A DNA stretch of 64,000 nucleotides, from the IMG/VR virus record IMGVR_UViG_3300044966_000489; one strand, written 5' to 3'. The notes beneath the pieces are model-generated. The model did no database searches and was not told where the DNA came from. It saw only the letters and a list, made by a program, of their open reading frames with translations. The position numbers were made by a program, and so were the translations under genes. This stretch comes from a virus. Positions 25,015-48,952 of this stretch are shown piece after piece. The first letter of the stretch is position 1. Every line of letters begins with the position of its first letter.

Positions 25015-25037
25015 AAAAAGCCGCCTTTCGGCGGCTT
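25015..25037 (-). terminator. intrinsic terminator
   Basis: AAGCCGCC-GAAA-GGCGGCTT followed by T-run. Confidence 0.85.
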
Positions 25038-31926: not shown

Positions 31927-31955
31927 AAAATAAAAACCCCGCCCGAAGGCGGAGA
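31926..31955 (-). terminator. intrinsic terminator after hsp20
   Basis: CCGCC-TTCG-GGCGG followed by GGTTTTTATTTT. Confidence 0.8.
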
Positions 31956-32400: not shown

Positions 32401-32886
32401 TTACACTCCTGTACTTCCAAATCCGCCCGTTCTTTCGGTTGTAGACAAAGATTCAACCTGCTGCCAATCAACAGCATGATACTTTTCAATAATTAATTGA
32501 GCGATCCGATCTCCAGCTTTAATATTAAAATCAAAATTTGAACCAGCAATGTTTGGAGTAAGCCCCATCATGCTTGCAAGATCAATACTTAGATTCATTA
32601 ATACAACTTTAACTTCTCCACGATAGCTAGAGTCTACAACGCCAGCAAGGACATCAATGCCATTCTTAACTGCCAATCCGCTGCGAGGAGCAATTCTTGC
32701 ATAATACCCTTGAGGCACTTCGATTGAAAGACCAGTGCTAACCAAAGCGCGACTCATTGGCTTGATCCTTACGCTCTCAGTTGCATAAAGATCGTAACCA
32801 GCATCTCCAGTCTTTTGACGAGACGGGACAATTGCTAGATTGTTTAGTTTAACGAATTTAACTGGGACTATTGTTTCTATATCCAT
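32401..32886 (-). CDS. dut: trimeric dUTPase
   Basis: AGYDL, RIAPRSGLA, GVVDSSYRGE, GDRIAQL, RTGGFGSTG. Confidence 0.97.
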   Translation of the reverse strand: MDIETIVPVKFVKLNNLAIVPSRQKTGDAGYDLYATESVRIKPMSRALVSTGLSIEVPQGYYARIAPRSGLAVKNGIDVLAGVVDSSYRGEVKVVLMNLSIDLASMMGLTPNIAGSNFDFNIKAGDRIAQLIIEKYHAVDWQQVESLSTTERTGGFGSTGV

Positions 32887-33335
32887 AATTGTAAATGAGA
32901 TTTAATTTTAGAAAAACTTTCGGGATTCAATTCCTTATAGTAAATTTTGTAATATTCAAATATTTCTTTGAACTTATTACATTGATCGTATTCCTTAATA
33001 TAAAATACTCTTTGAATTTCATGAGAAACTATATCCTTCGCGCAAGCGAAGCAAGGCGATATCGTCAAACATATAGTATCTGCATCTCCTTTTCTTATCA
33101 AAGACAAAGCGTTGGTTTCTGCATGGAGCATTATTTCGCGCTTCTTAGGACGATTTTTCTCCTCCTTCATCCAGTCTTTAACAGGGAAGCCTTTTTTAAG
33201 ACCGTTGTATCCTGTTGAAATTATTCTGCCCTCTTTATTTAAGATGCAAGCTCCAACCTTGGTGTGCGGATCTTCACTTCTAGACGAAGCAGCAAGAGCC
33301 ATCATGCACCCGTACTCATGCCAAGAAAGTCTCAT
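32877..33335 (-). CDS. dCMP deaminase
   Basis: RSEDPHTKVGACI, TGYNG, HAETNAL, SPCFACAK; start MRLSW at 33335. Confidence 0.92.
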   Translation of the reverse strand: MRLSWHEYGCMMALAASSRSEDPHTKVGACILNKEGRIISTGYNGLKKGFPVKDWMKEEKNRPKKREIMLHAETNALSLIRKGDADTICLTISPCFACAKDIVSHEIQRVFYIKEYDQCNKFKEIFEYYKIYYKELNPESFSKIKSHLQLWI

Positions 33336-33342
33336 GGAAAGT

Positions 33343-33407
33343 ATTCTCGCTGGAGCAAAACAAAAGATCAAGTTTATTTGGACCTTTTTCTGGCATTCTT
33401 GTATCAT
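33343..33407. promoter_or_regulatory. divergent sigma70 promoter pair at the strand switch
   Basis: Minus: TTGATC-17-GAGAAT (33371-33343); plus: TGGACC-17-TATCAT (33379-33407); both lie 5-7 nt from an ATG. Confidence 0.55.
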
Positions 33408-33412: not shown

Positions 33413-33832
33413 ATGACAATCGCTGATGCTTCAATTAAGTTATACCAATGGTATTTTAAAAATGATAGTTTTTGTGAAAATAATTTTATAAAGATTCTTG
33501 AGATTTCTGAACAACCAGAATCTGAAAGAGCTTGCATTTTATGCGCCCTTGAGGAATTTGAGAAAAATGGAGTCGTAAAGAAAGCCGTCTTTAATGAAAA
33601 TAATTATTGGATTCTTTCTAAGAAGTTCGATGCTTATGAACAGAATATCACAATCTCTCCTAAAACTGCTTTCGTAATCGCAGAAATTATTAATTCTTAC
33701 TGCACTTTAATTGAAAATGAATCTGAAAGATGCAACCCTGCTTCAGTCAGCGAGAAGGACATCAAGAACCTTCTGGTGATTTTCAACGAGATGCGCGAAA
33801 AGATTTTTGACAAAACCAAAAACCCTGAATAG
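33413..33832 (+). CDS. hypothetical protein, possible winged-helix DNA-binding protein
   Basis: First plus-strand gene; ALEEFEKNGVVKK...YWIL resembles a wHTH recognition helix and wing. Confidence 0.65.
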   Translation: MTIADASIKLYQWYFKNDSFCENNFIKILEISEQPESERACILCALEEFEKNGVVKKAVFNENNYWILSKKFDAYEQNITISPKTAFVIAEIINSYCTLIENESERCNPASVSEKDIKNLLVIFNEMREKIFDKTKNPE

Positions 33833-33835
33833 GAT
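33807..33835 (+). promoter_or_regulatory. sigma70 promoter driving the non-coding element
   Basis: TTGACA(33807-12)-17nt-TAGGAT(33830-35); +1 about 33841. Confidence 0.75.
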
Positions 33836-33840
33836 GAGCT

Positions 33841-34165
33841 AGTTCTTTGTCTGGGTGAATAGCCTACTGGGGATATCCCAGTTTGAACGCATCAGAGACA
33901 TCAGGCCCGTAAAAAGACCCTAGTCAACTGGATCTAAGAAATCCAACGCCATTTCGGGAAAAGGCGACGTTCCGCAAGGAGAAGACTTTGAAAAGCTGAA
34001 ACCTCATTTTTCTCAAAAGAAAAAGCTGGCAGTTCGTCCTAAGAGAAATCCCACCCGTGAAGACAAAGAACTTAAACAAAGAGTTAGTCATTAGCTAGGC
34101 TCTCTTGAGAGGGCCGAAAGCCTGAGAAGCAGGTTGCGAAGGATTGAAATGGGTAACTCTTGATT
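33841..34165 (+). ncRNA. candidate large structured non-coding RNA (unassigned family)
   Basis: 12-bp closing helix 33841-52/34061-72, several internal hairpins, second domain closed by 34079-92/34148-61; no ORF; starts at predicted TSS. Confidence 0.65.
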
Positions 34166-34249
34166 ATTTTAAAACTCTATAATTATTTTTAGAGATGACA
34201 GCCTTTTCCTATTTTAACTCAAAGAAAAATCATAAAGCTGGCAGTTCTC

Positions 34250-34278
34250 TTTACAAACACATCTCTTCTGAATACTAT
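34250..34278 (+). promoter_or_regulatory. sigma70 promoter, near-leaderless
   Basis: TTTACA-17nt-TACTAT, ATG 8 nt downstream. Confidence 0.65.
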
Positions 34279-34286
34279 GTTTTACT

Positions 34287-34919
34287 ATGTCTAACTTATT
34301 CCTAGGAATTGCTGGTGCTGCAACTGTAGGTAAGGATACTTACTATAGATTACTAAAGCAGATTTGCTCAGAAGAGTTTGGAGTGAATGTAATAAGATTT
34401 GCTCTTGCTGATTCGTTAAAGAATGATTTATATTCTTTGATCTTATATAAATACGGAGTTGACATTTTTAATTGTTCAACTGAGGATAAGAACAAGGTAA
34501 GACATTTATTAGTAAGTCACGCTAGAGTAATGCGTCAAAATACTAAAGGTAGGTATTGGATAGAAAAGCTTCAGTCTGAAATTGATGAGTACAAGAAATC
34601 TGAAAATTTTAAACCTTCAGATATTTTTTGTGTAACAGATATTAGACACTTCGAATATTCAAAAGACGAAGTTGTCTGGATAAAGGAAGAAAATAAAGGA
34701 GTTTTAATTTATGTTGAAAAATATTTTTCAGACGGTTCAATTTGCAATCCTGCAAACACTGATGAAAGCAGAAACGATCCCGCTCTTAGAGAACATTGCG
34801 ATTATTTGCTTCGTTGGATGCATGGATCTGACGAACAAACTTTGAAAATTTCCGTCAAAAAAAGTATTGACAACTTGATAAAACAAGGTAAGCTTTACAC
34901 ACATGATAGAATCAACTGA
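34287..34919 (+). CDS. deoxynucleoside monophosphate kinase-like P-loop protein
   Basis: GIAGAATVGKDT, FALADSLK, R.LLV, YWI, VTDIRH. Confidence 0.75.
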   Translation: MSNLFLGIAGAATVGKDTYYRLLKQICSEEFGVNVIRFALADSLKNDLYSLILYKYGVDIFNCSTEDKNKVRHLLVSHARVMRQNTKGRYWIEKLQSEIDEYKKSENFKPSDIFCVTDIRHFEYSKDEVVWIKEENKGVLIYVEKYFSDGSICNPANTDESRNDPALREHCDYLLRWMHGSDEQTLKISVKKSIDNLIKQGKLYTHDRIN

Positions 34920-35490
34920 CAACGAACTTGTAACGAAGGTAAAACTTCATCAATGCAACCAATCATTAAAGACTCTGATAGATAGGCACTCTCCTCTCTG
35001 TTTTGATATATTTAAAAAGTATAATAAGATTCTTCAAGAAAGAGGCGTAAGCCCAGAAGATCTTGCTAATGAAAAAGATTACATTATTTACAAGTGTACT
35101 CTTAATTTTGACGAAACTCAAAATAGTAAATTCTCAACTTGGCTTGCTAATCACGTTAAATACAAATGCTTAACAAACATTACTAAACATAAGTGGACGC
35201 TTTCCATAGACGATGAAAACCAAAAGAATCTTGTAGCAAATCTTAGTCAAGAAACTAATGATTTTGAAGAGAAGAAGGAATATATATTTAATCTCCTTTC
35301 TCAAATGAAAGACAAGCGATTAGAGAAGATTATCATGTTGAGATACTATGGAGACAAACCTTCTCGTAAGTGGAAGAATATTTCAAAAGAACTAGGCGTA
35401 ACTTACCAGACGGCAATCACTTTACACAAAAAAGCCCTTGAGTTCTTGAAAACAAAAATAGAGAGTAAAGAAATGCAAGATTTTGTGTAA
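34903..35490 (+). CDS. sigma-70 family RNA polymerase sigma factor
   Basis: Region 2 FDETQNSKFSTWL; region 4 IIMLRYY...WKNISKELGVTYQ....HKKAL. Confidence 0.85.
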   Translation: MIESTDNELVTKVKLHQCNQSLKTLIDRHSPLCFDIFKKYNKILQERGVSPEDLANEKDYIIYKCTLNFDETQNSKFSTWLANHVKYKCLTNITKHKWTLSIDDENQKNLVANLSQETNDFEEKKEYIFNLLSQMKDKRLEKIIMLRYYGDKPSRKWKNISKELGVTYQTAITLHKKALEFLKTKIESKEMQDFV

Positions 35491-35540
35491 AAACTCTTTA
35501 CTTTTTTTGTTGGTACAGGTAGTATTTATTTGCATATCTT

Positions 35541-35897
35541 ATGCCTACTCCTAATACTAACAATACTGACAGTAATTCAATTCGACGCGAACTTGGCGCA
35601 CTTTGGAGCCGCAAAGGCTCTAGTGGTTCTGAGTATCTAACTGGTAAGTTCCGACTTAAGGACATCAAGGATAACTTTGATGAAGTTAAGATCATTGTGT
35701 TCCCAAATAACAAGAAGAAGAATGATGGGTCTCCCGATTTTCAGATCTTCATGGAGAAGGCTCAGTACGAAACCCTCACTGGAACTCAAGGCTCTCCCAC
35801 TCCTGCTCCAGCAGCAAAGGTCGCTCCTCGCGCAGTAGTTAAGCCTCTTGTAAAGGCCGCAGTCAGCCAAGTCAGCGCAGATGATGATTTGATCTAA
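35541..35897 (+). CDS. DUF736-like putative ssDNA-binding protein
   Basis: ELGALWSRKG..G.EYLTG, FPN.KK..SPDFQI, Pro/Ala linker, acidic DDDLI tail. Confidence 0.65.
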   Translation: MPTPNTNNTDSNSIRRELGALWSRKGSSGSEYLTGKFRLKDIKDNFDEVKIIVFPNNKKKNDGSPDFQIFMEKAQYETLTGTQGSPTPAPAAKVAPRAVVKPLVKAAVSQVSADDDLI

Positions 35898-35898
35898 C

Positions 35899-36978
35899 AT
35901 GAAATTTGCCCTGCATCTTCCGATTAATACGACCAGTTTTGGTCAGGTCTCAATTCAGCTTCTCAAAGAGATTTATTCTTTGAAGTTGGAGCCATCTCTG
36001 TTTATGATTGGCAATCCTGATTTCGGTCAGGAAGAGATTACGGAAGATTTTAAGAATTGGTTTAATTCTTGTTTGAAGAAGGGTCTCCGATACCATTCAA
36101 GAAAAGATCCAGTTTTTAAACTGTGGCACATTAACGGCTCACTTGAGTCTTATAGTGATCGGCAGTTTTTACTTACTTTCCATGAACTTGATGCCCTCAC
36201 TCAGACTGAGATTAATATCTTAAAGAATAATGACAAGGTATTAGTTTCTTCCCCTTATTCAGTGAAGGTATTCAGTGAACATGGGGTAGGTAATGTAAGT
36301 TATTTACCCCTGTTCTTTGACGCAAAGAATTTCAAAGCTACAAACAAGACTTACTTTAATGACGGCAGAATCACTTTTAATCTTTGTGGCAAGTTTGAAA
36401 AGCGCAAGCATCATGTAAAGGCGATCCGTGCATGGATCAATAAGTACGCTAATAATAACAGCTACTCTTTACAGTGCGCTCTTTATAATAATTTTCTATC
36501 TCAAGAAGATAACACTAAATTGATTAACATGGCAGTTGAAGGCAAGAAATTCTTCAATGTCAGCTTCTTTGGGCATATGGCTCAAGTTAATCTTTATAAT
36601 GAATTTCTAAATTCAGCAGACGTTATTCTTGGAGCTTCAGGAGGTGAAGGTTGGGCTTTACCAGAATTTCAATCAGTTGCAATTGGAAAGCATTCTGTAA
36701 TTATTAATGCTCATGCTTATTCTGCTTGGGCTAATGATAAGAATTCAGTTTTAGTAAACCCCTCAAGCAAAATTCCTGCTTATGACAATATGTTCTTTCA
36801 CCAAGGACAAGAATTTAATCAGGGAAATATTTTTGACTGGTCAGAAGATGCTTTTATTGAAGGCTGCGAAAAGGCAATCGCAAGAGTAAAGCAAAGCAGA
36901 ATAAATCAAGAAGGTTTGAAGCTTCAAGAGCAGTTCACCGTCAGAAAGACAACTGAACAGATCCTTTCTCTTTTTTAA
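35899..36978 (+). CDS. GT4-like glycosyltransferase
   Basis: GKFEKRK, SGGEGWALPEFQ. Confidence 0.85.
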   Translation: MKFALHLPINTTSFGQVSIQLLKEIYSLKLEPSLFMIGNPDFGQEEITEDFKNWFNSCLKKGLRYHSRKDPVFKLWHINGSLESYSDRQFLLTFHELDALTQTEINILKNNDKVLVSSPYSVKVFSEHGVGNVSYLPLFFDAKNFKATNKTYFNDGRITFNLCGKFEKRKHHVKAIRAWINKYANNNSYSLQCALYNNFLSQEDNTKLINMAVEGKKFFNVSFFGHMAQVNLYNEFLNSADVILGASGGEGWALPEFQSVAIGKHSVIINAHAYSAWANDKNSVLVNPSSKIPAYDNMFFHQGQEFNQGNIFDWSEDAFIEGCEKAIARVKQSRINQEGLKLQEQFTVRKTTEQILSLF

Positions 36979-36979
36979 T

Positions 36980-37324
36980 ATGCCAGTTTATATTTTTCAA
37001 AATCCTAAAACTAAAGAATACAAAGAAGTTTTTCTTTCTGTTGACGCAGAGAAAGTGTATTCTGAAGGAGGAGTAAAATGGCAAAGAATTTTCATCTCTC
37101 CTAATGTAAGTGTAGATACACAGATAGATGCGAACTCTGAGCGAGATTTTATTGAAAAAACTGCGAGAAAGAATTATAACGTTGGTGAGATGTGGGATTC
37201 CTCTAAAGAACTTTCTGAAAAACGAGAAAGAGAAAAAGGAATAGACCCCATTAAGGAAAAATCTCTAAAAGAGTATTCTAAGGTCCGTCGTGGCGCAAAA
37301 CACACGAACAAGGCTGGTATCTAA
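36980..37324 (+). CDS. FmdB-like small protein lacking Cys
   Basis: MPVYIFQNP.T.EY.EV...WQRIF pattern. Confidence 0.6.
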   Translation: MPVYIFQNPKTKEYKEVFLSVDAEKVYSEGGVKWQRIFISPNVSVDTQIDANSERDFIEKTARKNYNVGEMWDSSKELSEKREREKGIDPIKEKSLKEYSKVRRGAKHTNKAGI

Positions 37325-37354
37325 TTTTTCGTTTCCCAAATCGGTTTTTCTTCG

Positions 37355-37360
37355 GTGTAA
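37355..37360 (+). promoter_or_regulatory. phage-specific GTGTAA promoter motif
   Basis: GTGTAATTA 13 nt upstream of the nrdJ ATG. Confidence 0.55.
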
Positions 37361-37373
37361 TTATTATCCCTAT

Positions 37374-39341
37374 ATGAGCAAAGCTATTAACTTCCTAGAC
37401 GAAATGGCGAACTTTACGTTCGTAACAAAATACGCAAAATATGACGAAAAGAAGAAGCGCAGAGAGACATGGGACGAGACTGTTACAAGAGTCGAGACCA
37501 TGCACTTGAAGAGATTCAAGCACCTACCAAAAGAAGACAAGTATGAAATTTCAAGAGCTTTCGACTTGGTTAGAGAAAGGAAGGTTACTCCTTCAATGCG
37601 TAGTATGCAATTCGGCGGTAAAGCGGTTGAAGCGCATAATGGAAGAATCTTTAATTGCGCTGTACGTCATATTGATTCTATTCGTTCTTTTGCTGAATCT
37701 TTTTATACTTTGCTTTGTGGTACTGGCGTTGGATTTGGTATCACTGATAAGTTCCTCAATCGCCTACCTGATCTCGTTAACGCTAAAGATAAGACTGGGA
37801 CGGTAATTACTTATACAGTTAATGATAGCATTGAAGGGTGGGGCGACTCAATTGAAGCTTTGCTAAACTGCTATTTTAAGAATACCGCTTATTCTGGCCG
37901 TAAGATCGTATTTGATTACAGCAAAATTCGCCCAAAGGGAGCGAAGCTTAAGACTGGTGGAGGAAAAGCTCCCGGCTATAAAGGTCTCAAGAACTGCCAT
38001 TTCAAGGTTAAATTGCTACTTGATACTATTATTGAAGATAGCAATCAAACCCGCCTTAAGACTGTCAATGCTTATGATATTTTGATGCATTGTGCTGATG
38101 CCGTATTGTCTGGAGGTATTCGCCGTTCTGCTTGCAGCGTTATCTTTGACGCTCAAGATAAGGACATGATGAACGCCAAGACTGGCAATTGGTTCCTTGA
38201 TAACCCTCAGAGAGCTAGATCAAATAACTCTGCAATTATTATTCGCGGCAAGACTTCTTATGACGAGTTTGAAACTCTAATTAATAAGACTAAGGAATTT
38301 GGTGAGCCGGGATTCTTATATGTTGTTGATGAGAATCAGCTTTTGAATCCTTGTTTTGAGATTTCTTTTATTCCAATTACTAAAGATGGACGTTGCGGAT
38401 TCCAGTTCTGCAATCTCACTTCTATCAATGGAGCGAAAGTTAAGTCTCTAGAAGATTTTAAAAATGCTTCTTGGGCTGCGTCATTGATTGGAACGTTGCA
38501 AGCTGCATATACGACCTTCCCTTATCTCGGTCATACTTCCGAAGAGTTGACCGAAGAAGAAGCTCTGCTTGGAGTTTCTATTACTGGAATGATGGATAAT
38601 CCAGATATCCTTTTCAATCCAGAGTATCAAAGAGAAGCCGCCAAGGTTTCAGTAAACACTAACATTGAATGGGCCAAGAAGATTGGAATCAATCAAGCTT
38701 CTAGAGTTACTTGCATCAAGCCAGAGGGAACTAATTCCATTGTATTGTCTGCTGCTTCTGGAATTCATCCTCACCACGCTCGTAAGTACTTCCGCCGCAT
38801 TCAGGTCAATAAGGAAGATAATGTCTATAAGTTCTTCAAGATGTTTAATGAACACGCTTGCGAAGAGAGCGTTTGGAGCGCAAATAAGGTTGATGATGTT
38901 ATTACATTCCCTATTGAAGTAAGTGAGAATGTCAAGATTAAGTCTGAACTAAATGCAATTGAGCATTTGGAACTTATTAAATTGACACAAACTAACTGGG
39001 TTAATTGCGGCACAACTGCTTCAAACAAGAAGCCACTAAACCATTCAGTTAGCTGCACCGTTATTGTTAAAGACGACGAATGGAAGACCGTTACAGAGTA
39101 CCTTTATAACAATCAAGAGTACTTTACTGCCGTTTCTTTGCTTCCTTATTCTGGAGATAAGATCTATCAACAGGCTCCAATGGAAGCAATTGTAACGCCT
39201 GAAGATGAAGTTAAATTTAATAAACTTCAAGAAGAGTGGTCAAAGGTTGACTTTACTAAGCTTATTGAAGATGAGGATGAAACTAGTCATACTCAGGAAG
39301 TTGCTTGCGCTGGCGGAAAATGTGAGCCAGTAAGTCTATAA
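37374..39341 (+). CDS. nrdJ: class II (adenosylcobalamin-dependent) ribonucleotide reductase
   Basis: RRETWDETV, FNCA, GGIRRSA, NPCFEI, FCNL, TCIKPEGT, C-terminal ACAGGKCE; no beta-subunit gene. Confidence 0.92.
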   Translation: MSKAINFLDEMANFTFVTKYAKYDEKKKRRETWDETVTRVETMHLKRFKHLPKEDKYEISRAFDLVRERKVTPSMRSMQFGGKAVEAHNGRIFNCAVRHIDSIRSFAESFYTLLCGTGVGFGITDKFLNRLPDLVNAKDKTGTVITYTVNDSIEGWGDSIEALLNCYFKNTAYSGRKIVFDYSKIRPKGAKLKTGGGKAPGYKGLKNCHFKVKLLLDTIIEDSNQTRLKTVNAYDILMHCADAVLSGGIRRSACSVIFDAQDKDMMNAKTGNWFLDNPQRARSNNSAIIIRGKTSYDEFETLINKTKEFGEPGFLYVVDENQLLNPCFEISFIPITKDGRCGFQFCNLTSINGAKVKSLEDFKNASWAASLIGTLQAAYTTFPYLGHTSEELTEEEALLGVSITGMMDNPDILFNPEYQREAAKVSVNTNIEWAKKIGINQASRVTCIKPEGTNSIVLSAASGIHPHHARKYFRRIQVNKEDNVYKFFKMFNEHACEESVWSANKVDDVITFPIEVSENVKIKSELNAIEHLELIKLTQTNWVNCGTTASNKKPLNHSVSCTVIVKDDEWKTVTEYLYNNQEYFTAVSLLPYSGDKIYQQAPMEAIVTPEDEVKFNKLQEEWSKVDFTKLIEDEDETSHTQEVACAGGKCEPVSL

Positions 39342-39425
39342 AATTTTTAGACTTTTTTGTGCTATAGTATTTTACAGAGTGTAGAATACTATATGCACAT
39401 CATGATGGCTTTAAATAAGTAAAAT

Positions 39426-39710
39426 ATGAATACACCAGCAGCATCCATAGATTGGCAAACCTTATTTAATATTGCTTTCATGATCGCCGGTTTTTTAGCT
39501 GGATGGATCTTCAAAAGGACTTTTCATTTAATTGACAAGCAAGAGCAAAAGACGGAAGATCTTTCAAACAAACTTCACGCCATTGAAATATCTCTTCCAA
39601 AAGAATACGTTAACAAAGAAGATCTCAATAAATTCTCAGAACATATTAACGCTAGATTTGATAAAATAGAAGCTAAACTTGATAATATCATTGAGAGAAG
39701 CAAAACATGA
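39426..39710 (+). CDS. single-TM coiled-coil protein
   Basis: N-terminal TM; LPKEYV.KED...RFDKIEAKLD. Confidence 0.7.
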   Translation: MNTPAASIDWQTLFNIAFMIAGFLAGWIFKRTFHLIDKQEQKTEDLSNKLHAIEISLPKEYVNKEDLNKFSEHINARFDKIEAKLDNIIERSKT

Positions 39711-40510
39711 TTTCATTTTTAGTTTTAAATTACAATAGACCTAAAGAAACAGAACTTTGTTTAAAATCAATTAAAAAATTTACTACCTTCTCTCACGAAG
39801 TAGTTTTACTAAATAATGGCGGACAAGATCACGATGCCATTTTTCAGTTTTTCAAAGATGGCTTGATTGACAAGCTAACTTTAAGATCAAAAAATTCAGG
39901 ATGTGGACTTGGCACAAGAGAACTATTCAATGATTTCAATTTAAGTAACGAATACGTTATTTACGTTCAGTGCGATCAGTTCATGATCCGTGAGTTCTCA
40001 GAGCAGGAAATAGCTAGTTACATTAACATTTTAAAGTCAGACGAATCAGTAAGCCATATTGATTTATCTGGAAATCAAGGAAACGGCAACTATTCTGAAA
40101 GAGCGCACCTAATAAACAAAAAGTTTTATAACAGTATCCCAAATACAATTGGTGGCCCCGGTCCATACGCAAATGAGATGTGGACTGAAGAAAGCCTTCA
40201 GAAATTCTTGAAAGCTAACAATAAGAGGTTTCTCGTTTCAAAGAATCTTTTATTTGCAGACAATGGTAAAGTATCTATTCGTGAATACCCTTGTGGCGGC
40301 GAATTGATACAATATACAGATACTAAAGAAGTATTTATTACAAAACCAATTAAGGCAAGAGTAGACTTTCCAAATATCCATTTAACTGATAAAGAATGGG
40401 AAATGATACTGTCTAATACATGGGTCGATGGAACTATTCCTCACAAGCATAGGGAAAACTCTTTTTTATTTTGGAAAAAACCATTCTATTCTGATATAAT
40501 GAATGGATGA
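39707..40510 (+). CDS. GT2-like glycosyltransferase
   Basis: ISFLVLNYNRP, LLNNGG, NSGCG, YVQCDQ. Confidence 0.8.
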   Translation: MISFLVLNYNRPKETELCLKSIKKFTTFSHEVVLLNNGGQDHDAIFQFFKDGLIDKLTLRSKNSGCGLGTRELFNDFNLSNEYVIYVQCDQFMIREFSEQEIASYINILKSDESVSHIDLSGNQGNGNYSERAHLINKKFYNSIPNTIGGPGPYANEMWTEESLQKFLKANNKRFLVSKNLLFADNGKVSIREYPCGGELIQYTDTKEVFITKPIKARVDFPNIHLTDKEWEMILSNTWVDGTIPHKHRENSFLFWKKPFYSDIMNG

Positions 40511-41352
40511 AGGTCTATCTTTGCGGTATAACGCAAAATCAACTTAAAAACATAGACGACCTAACTAAAAATTGCTATCAAGCTTTTGATGGTTTAATTT
40601 ATGTTGATGGTGGATCTACAGACGGTACAAAAGAACTTCTAGAAGAGAGAAAAGGCTGTGGTCAAGTTATTTACCGCAAATGGACTAACGACCATGACTT
40701 TCAAATGAATGAATTCTTGCGCCAAGGACCAATGGAAATTGGCGATTGGTTCGTCCTTAGAGATTCTAGAGAGAGATTCAATACTGAATGGATTGCCGAT
40801 ATCAAGAATCTCATTTCCAAAGCCAAGAACTCAGGAATTAGATCAATATATAATTACGGCAAAGGATTCGCTTTTGAATACTACGACGATATGTTCTTTC
40901 ATGGTTCTCCTCATTGGGGATTAGTTGGAGCCAGAAATCAAGCAGTAGACTTAAGTCAATTCTTTGATGAAAACAAGAAAGAGCATACTTGGAGATTAAG
41001 AGATGGAGAAGATGATCCAGAAAGAGACGAGTCTTACTATATCGATCACTTTTTTAAATATTACTACGTCTACGGAAGAAGTAATCATCTTCTATTGGGT
41101 CGAGAAAATGATAGAGAAGGTTTTCAGAAAGCTGAAGCTAGAAGAGTAGAGTTTAGAATGTATTGTCATTCTATCGGTTTAGAGTTTACAGCAGAGTCAT
41201 TTCTAAACTATTCAAAAAATTCTGGAGCAAATGATTTTAAGTTTAAGTCATTTATTAATTCAGAGGTTATTCTTAAAGATTTTTATAGAAAGAAAGTCCT
41301 AAACGAGCCTCTCAAAAGCATACAGGAAAACAAATTTTTAATCGTGACATGA
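40507..41352 (+). CDS. GT2-like glycosyltransferase
   Basis: YVDGGSTDGT, WFVLRDSRE. Confidence 0.8.
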   Translation: MKVYLCGITQNQLKNIDDLTKNCYQAFDGLIYVDGGSTDGTKELLEERKGCGQVIYRKWTNDHDFQMNEFLRQGPMEIGDWFVLRDSRERFNTEWIADIKNLISKAKNSGIRSIYNYGKGFAFEYYDDMFFHGSPHWGLVGARNQAVDLSQFFDENKKEHTWRLRDGEDDPERDESYYIDHFFKYYYVYGRSNHLLLGRENDREGFQKAEARRVEFRMYCHSIGLEFTAESFLNYSKNSGANDFKFKSFINSEVILKDFYRKKVLNEPLKSIQENKFLIVT

Positions 41353-42110
41353 AATTTTCTTCATATACTTCCGCCTTTAATCTCATCAAGATGGGATTCG
41401 ATTGGCAGAACTCGCTTCTAAACTATTCTCAGTTTATGGACGAGGTAGTCCTAGCTATTAATAAATCAGAAGATAATACATTTGAAATAGTTAATCAGTT
41501 CATAGTTGATAGAGATATTTCAAACATTACTCTTTGTCAATGTAATTTTGATTATGATGACTTAGCGTTTGATGGCAAGATAAAGAATTTCGCTCTTCAG
41601 CACACTATTGGAGATATAAAAATTTCATGCGATATTGATGAAAGATTTCCGTTGTATCAGAAAGATCTGTGGAGAAGAGCCGCCGAATATCTACTTTCAC
41701 AAAACCAAGCTTCTGCATTTCTAATTCCAAGTATTAATTTATGCGGTGACATTTATCATTATAAAGATATTGGCTATAAGTGGTATATGCACAAAGATGG
41801 TTTATATCGTGGTGTTGTTAACTTTGCCAAGAAACAAGACGGAAAGATAGATACAGACAAAAGCGACACCTGTGAATTAATCGACGCAAACGGAAACCTT
41901 GTACAAACCCTTATGTTCAATAATTCAATAGAAAAGCTTAGAGAAGGAGAAACTCCTTATGTTTTCCATTATTGGGCCGTAGATAAAAAACAGAGAGAAA
42001 GACAAAATGAATTCTGGCAACCTGTTTGGTCTAATCGCGCAGGGAAAGAAATAAATACAAAAACTGATTTTTCAAAGATAGAAATAAAAGAGCATAGTTT
42101 AAAGATATGA
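41349..42110 (+). CDS. GT2-like glycosyltransferase
   Basis: DEVVLA..SEDNT, KNFALQ, CDIDE, VFHY. Confidence 0.8.
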   Translation: MKFSSYTSAFNLIKMGFDWQNSLLNYSQFMDEVVLAINKSEDNTFEIVNQFIVDRDISNITLCQCNFDYDDLAFDGKIKNFALQHTIGDIKISCDIDERFPLYQKDLWRRAAEYLLSQNQASAFLIPSINLCGDIYHYKDIGYKWYMHKDGLYRGVVNFAKKQDGKIDTDKSDTCELIDANGNLVQTLMFNNSIEKLREGETPYVFHYWAVDKKQRERQNEFWQPVWSNRAGKEINTKTDFSKIEIKEHSLKI

Positions 42111-42769
42111 AAAATTTTTTAATAAATCAGTGTATAGAATCTGTTTATAATTCAGACAGAAATATTTCAAAAGTCAGCAATGATATTTTAAATATAGAAG
42201 GGATGAGCAGTCCCAAAGTTAGACACTTAATGAATAATCTTTGCTCTTTTGATAATTGTAGATATTTAGAAGTAGGAAGCTGGATGGGATCAACCTTATG
42301 CTCTGCCGCATTTAAAAATAAAGGTCATTTTATAGGAGTAGATAATTTTAGCGAATTCCATTCTTCAGTAAATAGCGGACATAAAAACAGTCAAGAAACG
42401 ATAAAAAATAAATTAATAACCAATATCAGTTCTTTAAATCAAAGAAATATAGATTTCCAAGAAAAAGATTTTTTTAGTTCTAATCTTGAAATAAAAGATA
42501 AAATAAATGTCTTTTTTTATGACGGTGTTCACAGTAAGAAAAGTCAATACGAGAATTTAAGCATAGCAAAACCTTTTCTTGATGAGTATTTTATTTATCT
42601 TGTTGATGATTTTTATTGCCAAGTCAGTCTTCCAAAAGCTTGTTCTTTATTTGCAATAAACGATTTTAAATTTGAAGTCTTTTTCTACTGCGAATTGCCC
42701 AGTAATAAAAAGGATGAACCGCTTTATCATGGAGGAATAGGAATGTTTGTTTTGAAAAATTATTTTTAA
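42107..42769 (+). CDS. class I SAM-dependent methyltransferase
   Basis: YLEVGSWMGST, VDNFS, FFYDGVH, VDD. Confidence 0.85.
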   Translation: MKNFLINQCIESVYNSDRNISKVSNDILNIEGMSSPKVRHLMNNLCSFDNCRYLEVGSWMGSTLCSAAFKNKGHFIGVDNFSEFHSSVNSGHKNSQETIKNKLITNISSLNQRNIDFQEKDFFSSNLEIKDKINVFFYDGVHSKKSQYENLSIAKPFLDEYFIYLVDDFYCQVSLPKACSLFAINDFKFEVFFYCELPSNKKDEPLYHGGIGMFVLKNYF

Positions 42770-42772
42770 TAT

Positions 42773-43522
42773 ATGAATCAGCTCCCATTAAATTTATTAA
42801 TTTTTACTACTACTAGAGGTCACTTTGGATTTCAAGATGTTTACAAGACCTCTATTAATTTCATGGAAAAAAAGCTTGGAAGCTTAAATGTATTTTCCAA
42901 TCGCATTGCTCATATAAAGGTTAGAGGGAATGAAGTAGAAAGAGAAAGATTACCAGAGATGGTATCTTTTTTTAATTCAAAGAATATTGAGACAATAGTT
43001 ACTCATGGCGACTGGGAAAGAGGAATGTCTCATCAGAACGAATATCTTAAAGATATAAACAAGAGCGTTAACACTAAACAAATTCAATCTTCTCCATACA
43101 CTCTTTGGTTTGAAGACGATTCGCCAATAGAAGGCAAAGATGTTTTTGATTCTCTTTTTAAATCAATTCGCATTCTTGAGCAAAATCAAGAAGTCTTAAA
43201 TATAAGATACATAAGAGAAGGTCTAAAAGAAAACGAGCATTTTTATAAAATAGATCAGGAAATCTGCTTTTCAAATACTTTTGATTTTCAACCAAATGTT
43301 TCTAGATCTAGAGACCTACTGTGTGCTTCTAATTTAATAAATAGGAATTGGGAATACTTTAAAAATATACAGTGCGAAATGGCTTTTAGATTGGCGATGG
43401 AAAACTTCAGTGCTTCAAAATTTAAATTCTTAGGATTTAATCCTGATTTATATTTTTCGTATCATATTGGGACTCCAGAATATAATAAGTTTTTACAAGA
43501 TCATGCTGACTATCTCAAATAA
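42773..43522 (+). CDS. putative GT-A fold glycosyltransferase
   Basis: LWFEDD motif and C-terminal HIG; cluster context. Confidence 0.6.
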   Translation: MNQLPLNLLIFTTTRGHFGFQDVYKTSINFMEKKLGSLNVFSNRIAHIKVRGNEVERERLPEMVSFFNSKNIETIVTHGDWERGMSHQNEYLKDINKSVNTKQIQSSPYTLWFEDDSPIEGKDVFDSLFKSIRILEQNQEVLNIRYIREGLKENEHFYKIDQEICFSNTFDFQPNVSRSRDLLCASNLINRNWEYFKNIQCEMAFRLAMENFSASKFKFLGFNPDLYFSYHIGTPEYNKFLQDHADYLK

Positions 43523-44219
43523 CGCAGGTTCGTTAGGTGATTATCTAAGTTTAACCCCTTTATTTAATCACACTCAGTGTACTGTACAAATATTTGAAAA
43601 CGAAAGATCAAGAGAACTGTCAAAAGTTTACGATGGTCTTGCAGATATTGAATTTGTAAATCATCCCGTTCCTCCTGTTAATCAGACAGATGAAGAAGTC
43701 TGTTTTTCACAAAGAATCTTAAATTATTACAAAGCATTTGATCAAAGCCCAATTCCCAAAATAAAGATAACGAAAGAAGAAGAAGAATGGGCTACTGAGT
43801 TTTTGTCTAAGTATAAAAATCCAATATGTTTCAATAGAACGGTTGGCAAACCAGACACGGGACATCCTTTAGCCAAGTATAGACAGATCTCAGTAAACAT
43901 ATCTAAACAAATAATCTCTCAGTGCGAAAGCTCTGGATATACAGTTTTAAATTTTTGTCTATCTTCTAATTATGAAAAAATAAGCGATGAAATCCCTGTT
44001 TTAGATTTACCAATAAGAAAACTAGCCGCTTGTTTCTATAAAATAAAAAAGTACATTGGCTCAGACACAGGAGATTATCATTTAATGCTTTCTGTCGGTG
44101 GAAACGTAAAAGTTTTGGTTCCTCCATCTGACTGGCACTATGATCATAAAAAGCATTTGTATTTAGATTACGCTTGGAAAAACGAACCAAAGAGAGCAGA
44201 TTACTATTTAATAAAATGA
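43503..44219 (+). CDS. GT9 (heptosyltransferase-like) glycosyltransferase
   Basis: GSLGD..SLTP, YIGSDTGDYHL. Confidence 0.75.
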   Translation: MLTISNNAGSLGDYLSLTPLFNHTQCTVQIFENERSRELSKVYDGLADIEFVNHPVPPVNQTDEEVCFSQRILNYYKAFDQSPIPKIKITKEEEEWATEFLSKYKNPICFNRTVGKPDTGHPLAKYRQISVNISKQIISQCESSGYTVLNFCLSSNYEKISDEIPVLDLPIRKLAACFYKIKKYIGSDTGDYHLMLSVGGNVKVLVPPSDWHYDHKKHLYLDYAWKNEPKRADYYLIK

Positions 44220-44866
44220 ATATACAATCAAAAAACCAATACGCAAGATTTTCTGCGTTAAAACAAATAGGCTTTAATCCTAAAAGAATACTAGATATTG
44301 GAGCTTATCAAGGAGAATGGGCATTAATGGCGAAAAATATTTGGCCCGATTCAGAAATAACATTATTTGAAGCAAACAAATTTTGCGAAGCTAAGATAAA
44401 AGAAAATGGATTTACCAATTACTATATAGAGGTTCTTGGGGACGAGAATAAAGAAGTGGATTTCAACGTGTGCCTAACTGGATGCGGAGAAGGGAACTCT
44501 ATCTATAAAGAGCAATCTGTATTTCCATTTGACACAGTGAAGCGTCAAATGAAGCGACTTGATGACATAATCCAAAGTAAATTTGACTTTGTAAAAATGG
44601 ACACTCAAGGTTCTGAAAAAGCAATTATTGAAGGAGGGAAAAATGTTATTGCTAATGCTCCGCTAGTTCAAATAGAAACTCAAGTACAAGAATATAATAA
44701 AAATGCGCCTTTTGTAAACGATATTATTAATTATATGATGTCTTTAGACTATAGGATTCTTGATATAACTGATTTTCATTATAATTCAAGCAATGTTCTG
44801 ATTCAGGTAGACATTCTTTTTGCTAAGAAAAATATGCAGATTTTTAATTTGCCTTGCTATAGCTAA
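44216..44866 (+). CDS. FkbM family methyltransferase
   Basis: ILDIGAYQG, FEAN, RLDD, FVKMDTQGSE, QVDILF. Confidence 0.9.
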   Translation: MNIQSKNQYARFSALKQIGFNPKRILDIGAYQGEWALMAKNIWPDSEITLFEANKFCEAKIKENGFTNYYIEVLGDENKEVDFNVCLTGCGEGNSIYKEQSVFPFDTVKRQMKRLDDIIQSKFDFVKMDTQGSEKAIIEGGKNVIANAPLVQIETQVQEYNKNAPFVNDIINYMMSLDYRILDITDFHYNSSNVLIQVDILFAKKNMQIFNLPCYS

Positions 44867-44867
44867 T

Positions 44868-45419
44868 ATGAAAAACGGCAAAACAGTACTAGCAGAAATT
44901 GGAGTTGGGCCTCTAAGCATGGCTTTTGGAAAATTAGTTTGGGACAGGCCAGACTTAGAAGTTTTAATGTTTGAACCTCATCCAAAATACTATGCAGATA
45001 TAGTTAAAGAGTGTAATGGAAGACCAAACGTTAAAATATTTAATTATGCAATTGGAGATTTTGATGGAGAATCATTTTTTTATGATGACGAAACATCGTC
45101 TTCTCTTGATGGCATCCAATCTCCCATAATTCAAAACGATACTCCAGAGCGAAATAAAAACAAAATAAAAGTAAACGTAAGGAAGATATCTAATTTTGAC
45201 GATGGTTCAATAGACTACTTAAGATTAGATACAGAAGGCGCAGAGTGGTTTACTTTAAAACATCTCGTTAGCAGACCAAGACAAATAACTGTAGAAATCT
45301 ATAACGATCTAGCAACATATATTAATCCTTACTTGCTTGAAATAGAACAATGGGCAGCATTAAACGGATACACTAGAGTAGCTGTACAAGATTCTGATTT
45401 TATTTATGAAAGACAGTAA
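44868..45419 (+). CDS. FkbM family methyltransferase
   Basis: AEIGVG, FEPHP, AIGD, LRLDTEGAEW. Confidence 0.85.
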   Translation: MKNGKTVLAEIGVGPLSMAFGKLVWDRPDLEVLMFEPHPKYYADIVKECNGRPNVKIFNYAIGDFDGESFFYDDETSSSLDGIQSPIIQNDTPERNKNKIKVNVRKISNFDDGSIDYLRLDTEGAEWFTLKHLVSRPRQITVEIYNDLATYINPYLLEIEQWAALNGYTRVAVQDSDFIYERQ

Positions 45420-45696
45420 GCCAATAGAATTTTATCACGAACAAGTTAGCAAAATGATAACTATTACAATTATTAGATCTTTTATAAAAGACTCTAGTTG
45501 TAAAGAGCTTTCCGACATTTTATGGAGAATTTTTCATAAAAAAGAAAGGATTGTTAACAATATAGCTAAGTACGTTAAAGTAATGGTTGAAGAAAAAGAT
45601 AAAAACATTGATGATGTGTTAAACTCTGTTTCATTTTTTGCTTTTATTTTAAAAGAATATGCGTACAAAAACATAGGTCAACCTATTAATAAATAA
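45406..45696 (+). CDS. hypothetical protein
   Basis: 96-aa ORF within the operon. Confidence 0.55.
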   Translation: MKDSKPIEFYHEQVSKMITITIIRSFIKDSSCKELSDILWRIFHKKERIVNNIAKYVKVMVEEKDKNIDDVLNSVSFFAFILKEYAYKNIGQPINK

Positions 45697-45697
45697 T

Positions 45698-46306
45698 ATG
45701 TATCACGAAATCATTCCTTCTTTTATAGATGTGCCTTTTAAATTTCACAAACAGGCTGTCTTAGGGTCAAGCGACAATGATATTCTTTGCGAAGTTAACT
45801 GTTCTTTTTTTGGAAAGACATCTTGTTACGCTTTAGAGCTAATGTATTTAAATCAAAAAAAATGCAAGTTCTACTGTTTTGATTTATTTAATTGCGTTCC
45901 TCACCCTGTTGATGGAGAACCGATAAGAGAAAAAACCCCTTGGGGTGAAGATACTAATAAATGGTTAGATAGAGTTGGCGGCAATCATAAACTTTTAGAT
46001 GCTTTTGATTTTTATTTAGAAAACTTTCCTCATAATAAGCTTCTTACAAGCAGGGCGCAGTTTACTTCATGGCAAGCCGCTCATGAGTTTTTAGATAATT
46101 CCGTCTTCTATGTATTTATCAGATGCTCTGAAAACTATCAGCATACAAGAAATGATTTAATAGATTGGTTCAAAAAAATAAAGACTGGCGGCTCTATCGT
46201 TCTTTTCAATGCCAACAGCGAAGCAGTTAGAGCAATACACGATGTATCAAGAGAATTCGGTCTTAATAGTTCTTTTGAAGAAAACTGTTTTGTATTTAAT
46301 AAATGA
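45698..46306 (+). CDS. degenerate class I methyltransferase-like protein
   Basis: CEVNCSFFGKT, YCFDLF, WFKKIKTGG; the usual D-x-x-H is replaced by RCSEN. Confidence 0.55.
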   Translation: MYHEIIPSFIDVPFKFHKQAVLGSSDNDILCEVNCSFFGKTSCYALELMYLNQKKCKFYCFDLFNCVPHPVDGEPIREKTPWGEDTNKWLDRVGGNHKLLDAFDFYLENFPHNKLLTSRAQFTSWQAAHEFLDNSVFYVFIRCSENYQHTRNDLIDWFKKIKTGGSIVLFNANSEAVRAIHDVSREFGLNSSFEENCFVFNK

Positions 46307-47124
46307 ATAGAATAATCTTAGGAAACCAAGGTCAATTTGGAGACCTATGTATAAATACAGTTGCCTTTAAAAAAATAAAGGAATTGAACCCAGAATCTTT
46401 TCTGGTAATGTCTATTAATAAAAAATATACTGAAATCTCTCCTATATTTTTAAACAATCCATTTATCGATTCTTTAATCGTTTGGGATCAATACGATGGC
46501 TGGCCTAACGAAAAAGATTTGCTGTTAATAAAAAATTATAAAAACACCACTTTATACCATCCCATGCCGCCGCATACTAATAACGCATGGTTTTTAAACT
46601 CTCATCAAACAGAAGAAGCGGCGTTCATGAACGGATACAGCGGGAATAGATTTCCAAATGGCGAGCAATGCATCTTAACAAAATGGTTCGATACTGATAA
46701 AAATTTAAACTTTGTGGCCTTTTCTCCTTTTGCGGGTTTCTATAGTCCCAATAATAAGAAAATGCTATCTATTGAAAACGCTCAAAAAATTGTTAATTTA
46801 ATTAAATCTAAAGGCTATAATGTAATACAATTAGGTGGGTCAAATGAACCTGTTCTTGATGGGGTAATAAAAGAAAACGGTTCCTTTTTCTCTTCGATTA
46901 AAACTGCTCTTTCTTGTAAATTTTATATTGGCACAGACACAGGGATGACTTGGATTTTGTCCGCTTACTCTCATCCAAGTCTTGGTCTTTATTCGTATGA
47001 ATATTACACAAAAGATTATGTAAAAAATATTCAACCAATAAATCCAAATGCAATTTATTTAAGTGAACCCAATGTAAATCAAATAACAATAGAACAAATA
47101 GAAGAATCAATAAAGAATTTTTAA
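46303..47124 (+). CDS. GT9 (heptosyltransferase-like) glycosyltransferase
   Basis: GQFGDL, NNPFID, VIQLG, YIGTDTG. Confidence 0.8.
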   Translation: MNRIILGNQGQFGDLCINTVAFKKIKELNPESFLVMSINKKYTEISPIFLNNPFIDSLIVWDQYDGWPNEKDLLLIKNYKNTTLYHPMPPHTNNAWFLNSHQTEEAAFMNGYSGNRFPNGEQCILTKWFDTDKNLNFVAFSPFAGFYSPNNKKMLSIENAQKIVNLIKSKGYNVIQLGGSNEPVLDGVIKENGSFFSSIKTALSCKFYIGTDTGMTWILSAYSHPSLGLYSYEYYTKDYVKNIQPINPNAIYLSEPNVNQITIEQIEESIKNF

Positions 47125-47125
47125 T

Positions 47126-47725
47126 ATGGGAAATCTAAAAACATTTAATGTAGGATATTTTAAGTCAAAAGTAAATGCAACAGCGTTTTTTGAAACCGGA
47201 TTAGGATCTGGATCAGGATTATTATATGCTTCGATATTTGGATTTCAAACTCTTATTTCTACTGATATTGATAAAAATGCAATTCTAAGATTCAAAAGCC
47301 AATACGCCGAAGCTTTACAAAAAACAAACCAAGTTTTTTTATTTGAGGGCAATAGTGCAGAAGTTTTGGATAAAACGCTTCCTATTATAAGTAACCACAA
47401 TTCATGCATTTTTTGGTTAGATGCTCATTTCCCCGGAGAGACAAGCGGATACTCTTACGAGCATGAAAAAGATATATCGGTAAGACTTCCCCTAGAACAA
47501 GAAATAGAAATTATTTTAAAGCACAGGAAGTCTAATAAGGATATTTTAATAATTGATGATTTGCGTATTTATGAAAAAAGAAATTACGAAGCCAAGTCAT
47601 TAGACGATATAGGTCTTGGACATCTTGCTAAATACGATAATAAAGTAAATGAACTCTTAGCTCAAAAGTTTGATATTTATAAGTTTGATCTAGATACTGG
47701 ATTTGTAGTTTGCCTACCTAAATAA
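47126..47725 (+). CDS. class I methyltransferase-like protein
   Basis: FFETGLG.G, GNS, FWLDAH, PLEQE, ILIIDDLR. Confidence 0.75.
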   Translation: MGNLKTFNVGYFKSKVNATAFFETGLGSGSGLLYASIFGFQTLISTDIDKNAILRFKSQYAEALQKTNQVFLFEGNSAEVLDKTLPIISNHNSCIFWLDAHFPGETSGYSYEHEKDISVRLPLEQEIEIILKHRKSNKDILIIDDLRIYEKRNYEAKSLDDIGLGHLAKYDNKVNELLAQKFDIYKFDLDTGFVVCLPK

Positions 47726-47726
47726 T

Positions 47727-48392
47727 ATGAAAAAATTTGGAATAAGAATGGATGGAAATGAAACTTCTATCGAAGAATCATTTAAGAAATATTTAGAAAC
47801 CAATGAAAGTGATTTTAAATATTTAGAAATTGGTGCCGCTGGCACAGTTTCTATGAAATCAATTTATGAAATTGTTTCTGAAAATATTAAACACAATAAC
47901 TGGGAAATTCATGGTTTGGATTTGCCAAATGGCTGGAGCTTAGATTGGAATCAAATTGCAAACTTTAATCATCCTCTTTGTCTATATATTAATGGAATTC
48001 AGAATTTAGCTAGATTTGATACTTTTGCTAAAGCTTCTTTGTGGCTTCAAAGTGATCCAAGAAAGTGGATTTCTGAACTAAAAGATGAGTCTATTGATGT
48101 GTGCTTTATTGATGGATGTCATGGCGCACCGTGCGTAACAGCAGATTTTAAAGCCGTGCAATCCAAAATTAAAAAAGGCGGAATTGTCTTTTTTCATGAT
48201 GCAGGAGAACCAGAGCAAGGAACAGACTGGCAAGGTCACTGTAATGAATATATCAATGTTAGAAAAGCTATAATAAACCTTGGATTATTTGAAAACAAAC
48301 TTGAAAACTGGCAATTTGTAAACGAAACAAACGGAAGCAGAAAAAATGGAGGAGACGGCAACAGTTGCGTTTTTATTAAAAAAATTAAATAA
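47727..48392 (+). CDS. class I SAM-dependent methyltransferase (Methyltransf_24-like)
   Basis: YLEIG, FIDGCH, GGIVFFHD. Confidence 0.8.
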   Translation: MKKFGIRMDGNETSIEESFKKYLETNESDFKYLEIGAAGTVSMKSIYEIVSENIKHNNWEIHGLDLPNGWSLDWNQIANFNHPLCLYINGIQNLARFDTFAKASLWLQSDPRKWISELKDESIDVCFIDGCHGAPCVTADFKAVQSKIKKGGIVFFHDAGEPEQGTDWQGHCNEYINVRKAIINLGLFENKLENWQFVNETNGSRKNGGDGNSCVFIKKIK

Positions 48393-48394
48393 AT

Positions 48395-48952
48395 ATGAAT
48401 CAATATCTTAATCATTTTTTAAACTCAAAGGGAAATAGAGATTTAATATTTCAAGACGCATTAAACTCTTTTTCTGGAAAGTCTATTCGCATTCTTGAAA
48501 TTGGAGCCACAAGAAATTTAGACAATTATTCTAGAATGGCTGATGGCTGGAGTTCTCTGCATTATTATTCTTATATAAAAAAGAATGGAGGATCTTTGAC
48601 TATTTGCGACATAAGCGAATCTTCATTGAGCAATTGCAAAAAACTTTTTGAAAACCTAACATCAGATGTTGATGTAAAGTTTCTTTTAGCTGATGGTACA
48701 GCTTTAATAGATGATTCGTATGATCTTATTTATTTAGATGGAGGAGATGATCCAAAAGACATGGTAACTCAGCTTTCCAAAATTAATCTTAATTCTCAAA
48801 AAGTCCTATGCGATGACTTTCATACAAAAGGGTCTATAGCTAGAAATATTTTTTCAAATTGTACTCTTTATAAATGGGAAGGTCATAGTCACGAAATGGC
48901 TTTTTACAGACAGAATTACAAAGGGGTTATTTTTTGCAGTACCATACAGTAA
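48395..48952 (+). CDS. class I SAM-dependent methyltransferase
   Basis: ILEIGATR, DGWSS, DLIYLDG, LCDD. Confidence 0.75.
   Translation: MNQYLNHFLNSKGNRDLIFQDALNSFSGKSIRILEIGATRNLDNYSRMADGWSSLHYYSYIKKNGGSLTICDISESSLSNCKKLFENLTSDVDVKFLLADGTALIDDSYDLIYLDGGDDPKDMVTQLSKINLNSQKVLCDDFHTKGSIARNIFSNCTLYKWEGHSHEMAFYRQNYKGVIFCSTIQ

Follow-up and report, generated by a model that had tools for sequence, protein, structure and literature searches.

The window, the whole stretch of 64,000 nucleotides analysed here, is part of a large aquatic bacteriophage genome; it carries two tRNAs (ARAGORN), and related genomes measure 158–178 kb. The ORF list leaves one gap of 454 nt, at 33833–34286, the largest of the window, with runners-up of 298 and 284 nt, in agreement with the first-pass annotation, which had described this as the only large ORF-free gap. 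To the left of the gap lies a gene for a 139-aa winged-helix protein, preceded by the dCMP deaminase gene that opens the leftward arm and marks the strand switch, and a dUTPase gene also stands at the start of this arm. To the right lie the genes of a deoxynucleoside monophosphate kinase and of a phage sigma factor, and the rightward arm further contains ribonucleotide reductase, helicase, primase and DnaE-type polymerase genes, as read from the ORF translations. The element had been placed beside the genome strand switch; it does lie near the switch, but the GC-skew minimum, at 33322, coincides with the gene divergence, away from the element. Among cultured phages, neither the DNA of the gap nor the kinase had a match, and a search for the host by sigma factor, phage tmRNA and tag peptide in samples of Verrucomicrobiota returned nothing usable. 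Elsewhere in the leftward arm, strong intrinsic terminators were seen at 25018–25037, 31937–31954 and 13989–14020, and the sole sizeable plus-strand gene of that arm (9759–10379) has a GC skew at fourfold sites opposite to that of its neighbours. On the other side, 35541–35897 holds a small DUF736-like gene, possibly for a single-strand-binding protein, which in several of the river RNA runs was covered by the contigs of greatest depth, a quantity that cannot rank genes.

The gap is occupied by a gene for a non-coding RNA, here called type A (Table 1). Its sigma-70-type promoter, found where the first-pass annotation had put it, is the top-scoring site of the region and keeps its position across homologues with a variable spacer: a score of at least 8/12 was obtained in 38 of 49 type A loci, compared with 7% in the random control. 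The promoter spacing predicts a +1 at 33841. Behind the RNA, ahead of the kinase operon, a second promoter-like site is present, and 22 of 50 homologues have a 9/12 site in this place (control, 9%). A 9/12 promoter-like site on the minus strand (34256–34229) is, judged by eye, kept only in the closest relatives. Coding potential is absent, the median longest ATG frame being 31 aa. The element had been given a length of ~320 nt; the RNA extends to ~34247 instead, because its third pseudoknot, which shows compensatory changes, pairs a strand of the core with one far beyond the former end.

Table 1 Features of the locus; positions refer to the window unless a locus is named
Feature	Position	Strand	Remarks
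dCMP deaminase gene	32877..33407	-	PF00383, E 3e-17; opens leftward arm, marks strand switch
Winged-helix protein gene, 139 aa	33407..33832 (ATG 33413)	+	C-terminal helical domain; model pLDDT 77
Sigma-70-type promoter	33807..33835	+	-35 33807-12, 17-nt spacer, -10 33830-35; overlaps end of winged-helix gene
Non-coding RNA gene, type A, ~407 nt	33841..34247	+	ends inferred, not mapped
Domain 1	33841..34072	+	closed by P1 33841-52/34061-72 and P2 33853-57/34052-56
pk1	33906-09/33955-58	+	100% paired; 3 pairs invariant, 1 pair C-G to U-A in 3 sequences
pk2	33862-65/33962-65	+	99% paired, 4/4 pairs compensated; 33864-33963 exceeds every null value
pk3	33899-902/34194-97	+	97.5% paired; 33900-34196 exceeds every null value; ties core to 3' domain
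pk4	34047-51/34141-45	+	98% paired, 4/5 pairs compensated; ties domain 1 to domain 2
P4, 5' strand	33916-18	+	partner 34032-34; RNAalifold, covariation
P5	33922-25/33984-87	+	pairing in the window's lineage; RNAalifold, covariation
P5a	33929-45	+	5-bp hairpin, 7-nt loop, size of an anticodon arm
P6	33946-50/33966-70	+	covariation
GNRA hairpin	33971-80	+	lineage-specific
Module M1, first copy	33995..34035	+	bulged helix, apical hairpin, A-tract; exact repeat 34022-35
Domain 2	34079..34161	+	P10 (34079-92/34148-61), P11 (34098-115), optional P12 (34120-34)
Module M2, second copy	34198..34247	+	exact repeat 34234-47, 212 nt past the first
Second promoter-like site	34250..34278	+	precedes kinase operon
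Deoxynucleoside monophosphate kinase gene	34287..34919	+	phrog_139, E 1.7e-11; usual neighbour downstream of RNA
Phage sigma factor gene	34903..35490	+	phrog_351, E 5.8e-10; Sigma70_r2 below cut-off
Type B RNA, example	L052:2374-2772	+	
Type B RNA, example	L019:3576-3932		
Type B RNA, example	L020:2763-3127		

Homologous loci were collected by a search with a kinase alignment, which gave 67 loci, most of them with a gap of 350–590 nt directly behind a gene for a protein of ~140 aa. DNA patterns run on viral and metagenome contigs, with the matches filtered by nhmmer, enlarged the sets of type A and of a second RNA, type B, described below. Type A comprises 62 distinct full-length copies, 50 of them at <97% identity, with a mean identity of 64%, from freshwater and marine phages. 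Between close relatives the RNA gene is 90–95% identical, compared with 74–83% for the flanking genes. The same pattern search in GTDB bacterial genomes, which would miss diverged homologues, produced 45 matches, all attributable to chance by nhmmer, and five of these were also negative by covariance model. Of 78 loci, 66 have the end of the winged-helix gene <100 nt from the RNA, nine have a gene inserted before the RNA and three have the RNA inverted; in L066 a tRNA stands immediately behind the RNA. The distance from the RNA to the strand switch is always ≤1.6 kb for type A and ≤2.4 kb for type B.

To derive the fold, we combined RNAalifold with a covariation scan (G-test with APC, the null consisting of substitutions shuffled along the tree). 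Seven column pairs exceeded every null value; five are Watson–Crick pairs, the sixth neighbours a Watson–Crick pair and the seventh links two repeats by identity. The resulting structure has 78 pairs in 19 helices. When it was assessed on 30 sequences of <88% identity, 90.9% of the cells were paired and 60 pairs showed double-sided changes, a result equalled by none of 500 shuffles. Sliding the partners by 1–3 columns lowered pairing to 31–41%, a comparison that favours the structure since the fold was drawn from the same sequences. Folding energy alone is only mildly unusual and is weak evidence for an RNA: z is -2.1 for 33841–34170 and -1.0 at full length, where the opposite strand gives -1.2. 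Substitutions to G-U at paired sites are frequent and GNRA loops occur; therefore the conserved entity is probably a plus-strand RNA and not folded DNA.

The main helices of the first-pass fold are present, but its author had missed four pseudoknots and a duplicated module. Both long helices, the 12-bp P1 and P10, exist, P1 being shorter or imperfect in many homologues; P2 is paired in 99% of cells with a compensatory change in all five pairs. P2, P3, P5, P5a, the GNRA hairpin and a hairpin at 34007–24 were likewise recovered, and those shared by the family covary, as do the family-wide hairpins of domain 2, where P12 is missing in most members. Two proposed helices fell away: GCCT/AGGC (33903–06) and CGCC/GGCG have a covariation score that 220 of 500 shuffles reached, and their place is taken by pk2 and P6. 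In P5a, loop positions 3–4 are nearly fixed and position 5 is free. The four pseudoknots are 97.5–100% paired across the 30 sequences. Support for pk1 is mostly conservation, with a single compensated pair; pk1, together with the nearly invariant A-run (33910–15) directly after its first strand, is the most conserved part of the RNA. The alignment of the 30 sequences has 35 invariant columns, clustered in the pseudoknotted core. Type A is almost certainly a functional structured RNA; the analysis establishes its gene, its conserved promoter, a covariation-backed fold, the plus-strand orientation and the single copy.

The identity link found by the scan, 34030/34242, joins the two copies of a module, M1 and M2. 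An exact M1/M2 repeat of at least 12 nt (12–18 nt) occurs in 92% of loci, compared with 1.8% of random phage segments. The repeat is itself variable, with 27 distinct strings among 47 loci, and for 13 of 19 lineages M1 matches the M2 of its own locus better than any other M2. As judged by eye, the 5' strands of the modules also change in concert, shared mismatches included, and a purine versus pyrimidine difference in the bulge is fixed. The spacing between M1 and M2 ranges from 177 to 243 nt and the apical part of the module varies in length. Concerted change of both module strands, together with variable apical length, fits a folded RNA site rather than a DNA operator of fixed spacing. In about half of the loci folded, M2 can adopt an alternative 3' hairpin. 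In two loci (L316:10895-11287 and L362:3943-4330) both modules have been lost, and the core, pk3 and pk4 are kept. We also considered other roles for the repeat. A genome-wide operator or phage promoter was ruled out, since in the four genomes searched the repeat has just two copies in each type A genome and none elsewhere, and a DNA palindrome for a winged-helix dimer was discarded because the half-site spacing varies.

Other phages carry a different RNA, type B, in this slot next to the winged-helix gene; 38 distinct copies of type B were found. Type B is ~380 nt long and has strong covariation of its own, long-range pairs and a purine-rich motif in two copies tied by an identity link; between these twin copies lies a terminator-like hairpin formed by a C-run and a G-run. 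Of 33 type B loci, 27 have a sigma-70 promoter at the distance seen in type A. No homology between the two RNAs was detected by cross-HMM or by covariance model with filters off. A short motif precedes copy 2 in 23 of 25 type A and 13 of 28 type B representatives (24–29% in shuffles), which as a sign of relationship between their sequences is suggestive only. All seven genomes examined contain a single RNA, either A or B; the type A genomes among them are partial. On protein trees the types are interleaved: the kinase tree requires nine A/B changes, compared with ~19–24 for shuffled labels. Swapping of A and B is nevertheless not shown, because the test does not reject a monophyletic type A (p-AU 0.059). 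Occupation of one slot and mutual exclusion imply that the two RNAs share a job, probably an important one. Two further loci differ. In a more distant phage (L068:2310-2790) an unrelated, folded-looking gap precedes the kinase gene and one for RNase HI, with a folding energy of about -152 kcal/mol, compared with -127 ± 6 in rough shuffles, and no Rfam match. In a 205-kb relative (L092:2937-3431) the winged-helix gene lies directly before the kinase gene, and the 7.6-kb locus contains neither A nor B RNA.

Neither RNA matches a known family in the catalogues searched. Rfam 15, searched at gathering threshold with the window and more than 30 loci, returned no match for A or B, tRNAs elsewhere in the loci being the only hits; the best sub-threshold rows reached 16 of 40 bits, and UptR reached 31 of 100 bits on the terminator-like hairpin of type B. 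No match to the core motif was found in the literature searched. A published set of 8,495 IMG/VR RNA candidates (PMC10690425) consists of unvalidated segments 29–151 nt long, among which fragments of type A could be present. The first-pass annotator had recognised no tmRNA, RNase P, SRP or group I/II core, and the defining features of each, when tested, were indeed absent. ARAGORN was negative for tmRNA, with a T-loop in one of 30 sequences and a CCA end in none. The CR-I and CR-V motifs of RNase P were found in 0/30 each, and the U of pk4 is paired and once compensated to C-G. The tetraloop and symmetric-loop motif of SRP helix 8 occurred in 0/30, with no Rfam match, and the group II signature was absent. 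The hammerhead core was likewise missing from all 30 sequences, and no Rfam ribozyme matched. For retrons, DGRs and DRTs, no RVT_1 match was obtained in three type B genomes that are 96–100% complete, and type A loci contain no unexplained neighbour of reverse-transcriptase size.

The closest resemblance to group I introns is in pk4, whose GACU/AGUC pairing and A-rich flanks recall P7. However, the strand order is reversed, with the AGUC strand upstream, the bulge is absent, and the G-C pair is not invariant (G-C in 26 of 30 sequences, A-U in 4). P4 stacked on P6 has no counterpart, the P6-like helix P12 being missing in most members, and there are no flanking exons and no interrupted gene. 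Type A is also comparable to GOLLD, ROOL, OLE and the raiA motif, which are large, multi-junction, phage-borne, non-coding and rich in pseudoknots; ROOL, of 581 nt, contains three pseudoknots and 10 nucleotides of high conservation (bioRxiv 10.1101/2024.12.08.627333; PMC5737381). None of GOLLD, ROOL, OLE, raiA and ARRPOF matched at gathering or E-value thresholds. At ~410 nt, type A is smaller than ROOL or GOLLD (>800 nt), and it adjoins a winged-helix gene at a strand switch, whereas GOLLD/ROOL-like RNAs lie in tRNA islands; unlike them it has twin co-evolving modules and shares its slot with an unrelated RNA. The likeness to GOLLD, ROOL and raiA is thus one of kind only. Type A is a real family of large phage RNAs with pseudoknots, apparently an undescribed one and new in sequence and in fold; the slot also houses a second family of this sort.

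RNA libraries were consulted for transcription of the locus. Twenty runs on record as RNA contain a small share of the region, and four were examined. One metatranscriptome contig of 264 nt is identical to 33856–34119, with a depth of 18.9 and no loose ends, and a contig from run X20 (33611–34098) spans the winged-helix gene into the RNA. Runs X1 and X11 yielded no contig across the RNA core; contigs attest presence, not absence. The same runs also cover phage genes, and contigs give neither strand, ends nor level. These contigs are compatible with transcription of the locus and are not proof of it. Covariation, the conserved promoter, lack of coding potential, absence from Rfam and the 264-nt contig together lend strong support to the original proposal of a phage RNA that is undescribed, structured, driven by a promoter and read from the plus strand.

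The winged-helix protein is a candidate partner of the RNA. Searches of Pfam, PHROGs, PDB, BFVD and the ESM Atlas gave nothing significant for it, and a Foldseek search with its model placed MecI/BlaI in the top rows at E values of 0.01–0.04, which are not significant. The gene is a core gene, present in all seven genomes compared. Its tree fits RNA type no better than the kinase tree does (12 versus 9 changes), and the seven genomes, of which those of type A are partial, yielded no gene confined to one RNA type.

An invariant core combined with lineage-specific twin modules suggests two partners, and for this reason we favour, tentatively and with less than even confidence, a stand-alone early ribonucleoprotein whose core would bind a host machine and whose twin modules would dock a phage protein dimer. 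According to this model, host sigma-70 polymerase would transcribe the RNA gene early, and the ~410-nt product would fold into a compact structure with four pseudoknots and act as a ribonucleoprotein. The near-invariant core would contact a slowly changing partner, most likely the host RNA polymerase or ribosome, or a replication machine, in an early takeover. M1 and M2 would be identical docking sites for one fast-evolving dimeric phage protein, for which the winged-helix protein is the first candidate, and the docked dimer may switch or titrate the RNA; type B would do the same job with a different fold. In favour of the model are the loss of modules with retention of the core in L316 and L362, and the independence of the RNA from its neighbours, seen in its own promoter, the second promoter often present behind it, the insertions and inversions, and the tRNA in L066. 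The concerted change of both module strands, the single copy per genome and the mutual exclusion of A and B in the seven genomes count in its favour as well. Against it stand the tree of the winged-helix protein, the failure to find an RNA-type-specific gene in the seven genomes with their partial type A members, and L092, which has the protein gene without the RNA. Identity of the 3' strands would also be maintained if the copies exchanged strands, or if copy 1 paired with the template DNA of copy 2.

The latter pairing belongs to an origin RNA, a reading that had been offered in the first-pass annotation and that we rate only a little below the ribonucleoprotein. By analogy with ColE1 RNA II, type A may be a cis-acting transcript that opens or primes a phage replication origin through an R-loop, in which copy 1 of the repeat could nucleate a hybrid with the template strand of copy 2; the winged-helix protein would then be an initiator or copy-number regulator, and A and B would be interchangeable replicons. 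ColE1 RNA II, MRB RNA II and ARRPOF offer precedents (PMC5043065, PMC3035462, PMC5737381), in that they too are structured non-coding transcripts of 400–550 nt with their own promoters in a replication region. Type A lies near the strand switch in phages with DnaB-, DnaG- and DnaE-like core genes, A and B are single-copy and mutually exclusive, and in L068 a folded gap precedes an RNase H gene and the same kinase gene. However, there is no homology to the three precedents, no conserved antisense RNA I promoter was found, the lone antisense promoter-like site being kept, as judged by eye, in the closest relatives only, and unlike ColE1-type replicons the type A phage encodes its own primase- and helicase-like genes. 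The position of the RNA is not special, because the whole gene block is syntenic, and GC skew gives the origin no support: its minimum tracks gene strand in seven of seven genomes and does not mark an origin, and the fourfold-site skew of the winged-helix gene is intermediate. An AT-rich tract often lies downstream of the RNA (median in the top 2–3% of windows), but it is absent from several loci and unremarkable in this window. Four genomes were found to have no RNase H gene, for which the host enzyme could serve. Finally, both module strands change in concert, and a DNA hybrid would not need that.

We consider a new ribozyme improbable. In such an RNA the pseudoknotted core would be the active site and M1 and M2 copies of a substrate or docking helix, with self-cleavage, excision or circularisation as the outcome. 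Its size, four pseudoknots and invariant core residues are typical of large ribozymes on general grounds (PMC5737381), pk4 has its group I-like features, and the helices, if the RNA is read as a circle between the repeats, would fall in an order like that of group I. The first-pass suggestion of ribozyme function finds the known cores absent, however: group I, RNase P, hammerhead and group II signatures are all missing, and the would-be G-binding pair is A-U in four of 30 sequences. In addition, both modules are dispensable in one lineage, and the four RNA runs contained no repeat–repeat joint, contigs again showing presence and not absence. Of a similarly low order is the chance that type A may be, by analogy with put, EAR and conAn2, a cis leader that modifies RNA polymerase or attenuates the long early operon; the winged-helix protein would then be a ConAn1-like cofactor. 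The layout of a small protein gene, a structured RNA of ~400 nt and a long operon resembles conAn1/conAn2 of pLS20 (conAn2, 383 bp), HK022 put and EAR, whose RNAs span 260–600 nt (PMC8191782); in each of the 48 type A loci the gene that follows has the orientation of the RNA, and copy 2 can form its alternative 3' hairpin in about half of the loci folded. Unlike these leaders, type A has a promoter of its own, is often followed by a second one and can be inverted. The downstream 20 kb has no excess of terminators (10 intrinsic terminators in 34300–54000 against 10.4 expected), in five of the 33 type B loci the neighbouring gene is convergent, and a terminator-like hairpin closes the type B RNA. 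A decoy of sigma-70 polymerase resembling 6S RNA, which would favour the phage sigma factor, was another of the original suggestions and is very unlikely. The sigma factor is indeed a core gene two genes downstream, but the multibranch fold with four pseudoknots lacks the long rod and central bubble of 6S RNA, and no 6S match was obtained.

Highly tertiary-structured large RNAs of bacteria and phages are rare, and those solved are ribozymes or have unusual roles (PMC5737381). Here two such families came to light together, and the members of both are numerous and diverse enough for modelling, probing and cryo-EM. A new functional class, either a ribozyme with the modules as substrates or an RNA-built phage origin, with two interchangeable folds exchanged at one slot, is conceivable, although we would not expect it. 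The module-less lineage, the three inverted loci and the relative with the protein gene and no adjacent RNA provide natural controls. The Rfam search and the collection of homologues with their covariation had been proposed from the outset as ways to examine the element, and the outcome was no matching family, 62 distinct homologues and double-sided changes at 60 pairs.

Outside the slot, several related phages were seen to carry tmRNA genes of their own (L403:16002-16402 on the minus strand, G001, G002 and G006), at varying positions and with unusually long tags of 21–31 aa. In another genome, a single ORF of 8077 codons lies within the block of structural genes (G004:69167-93400, loci L406-L407).
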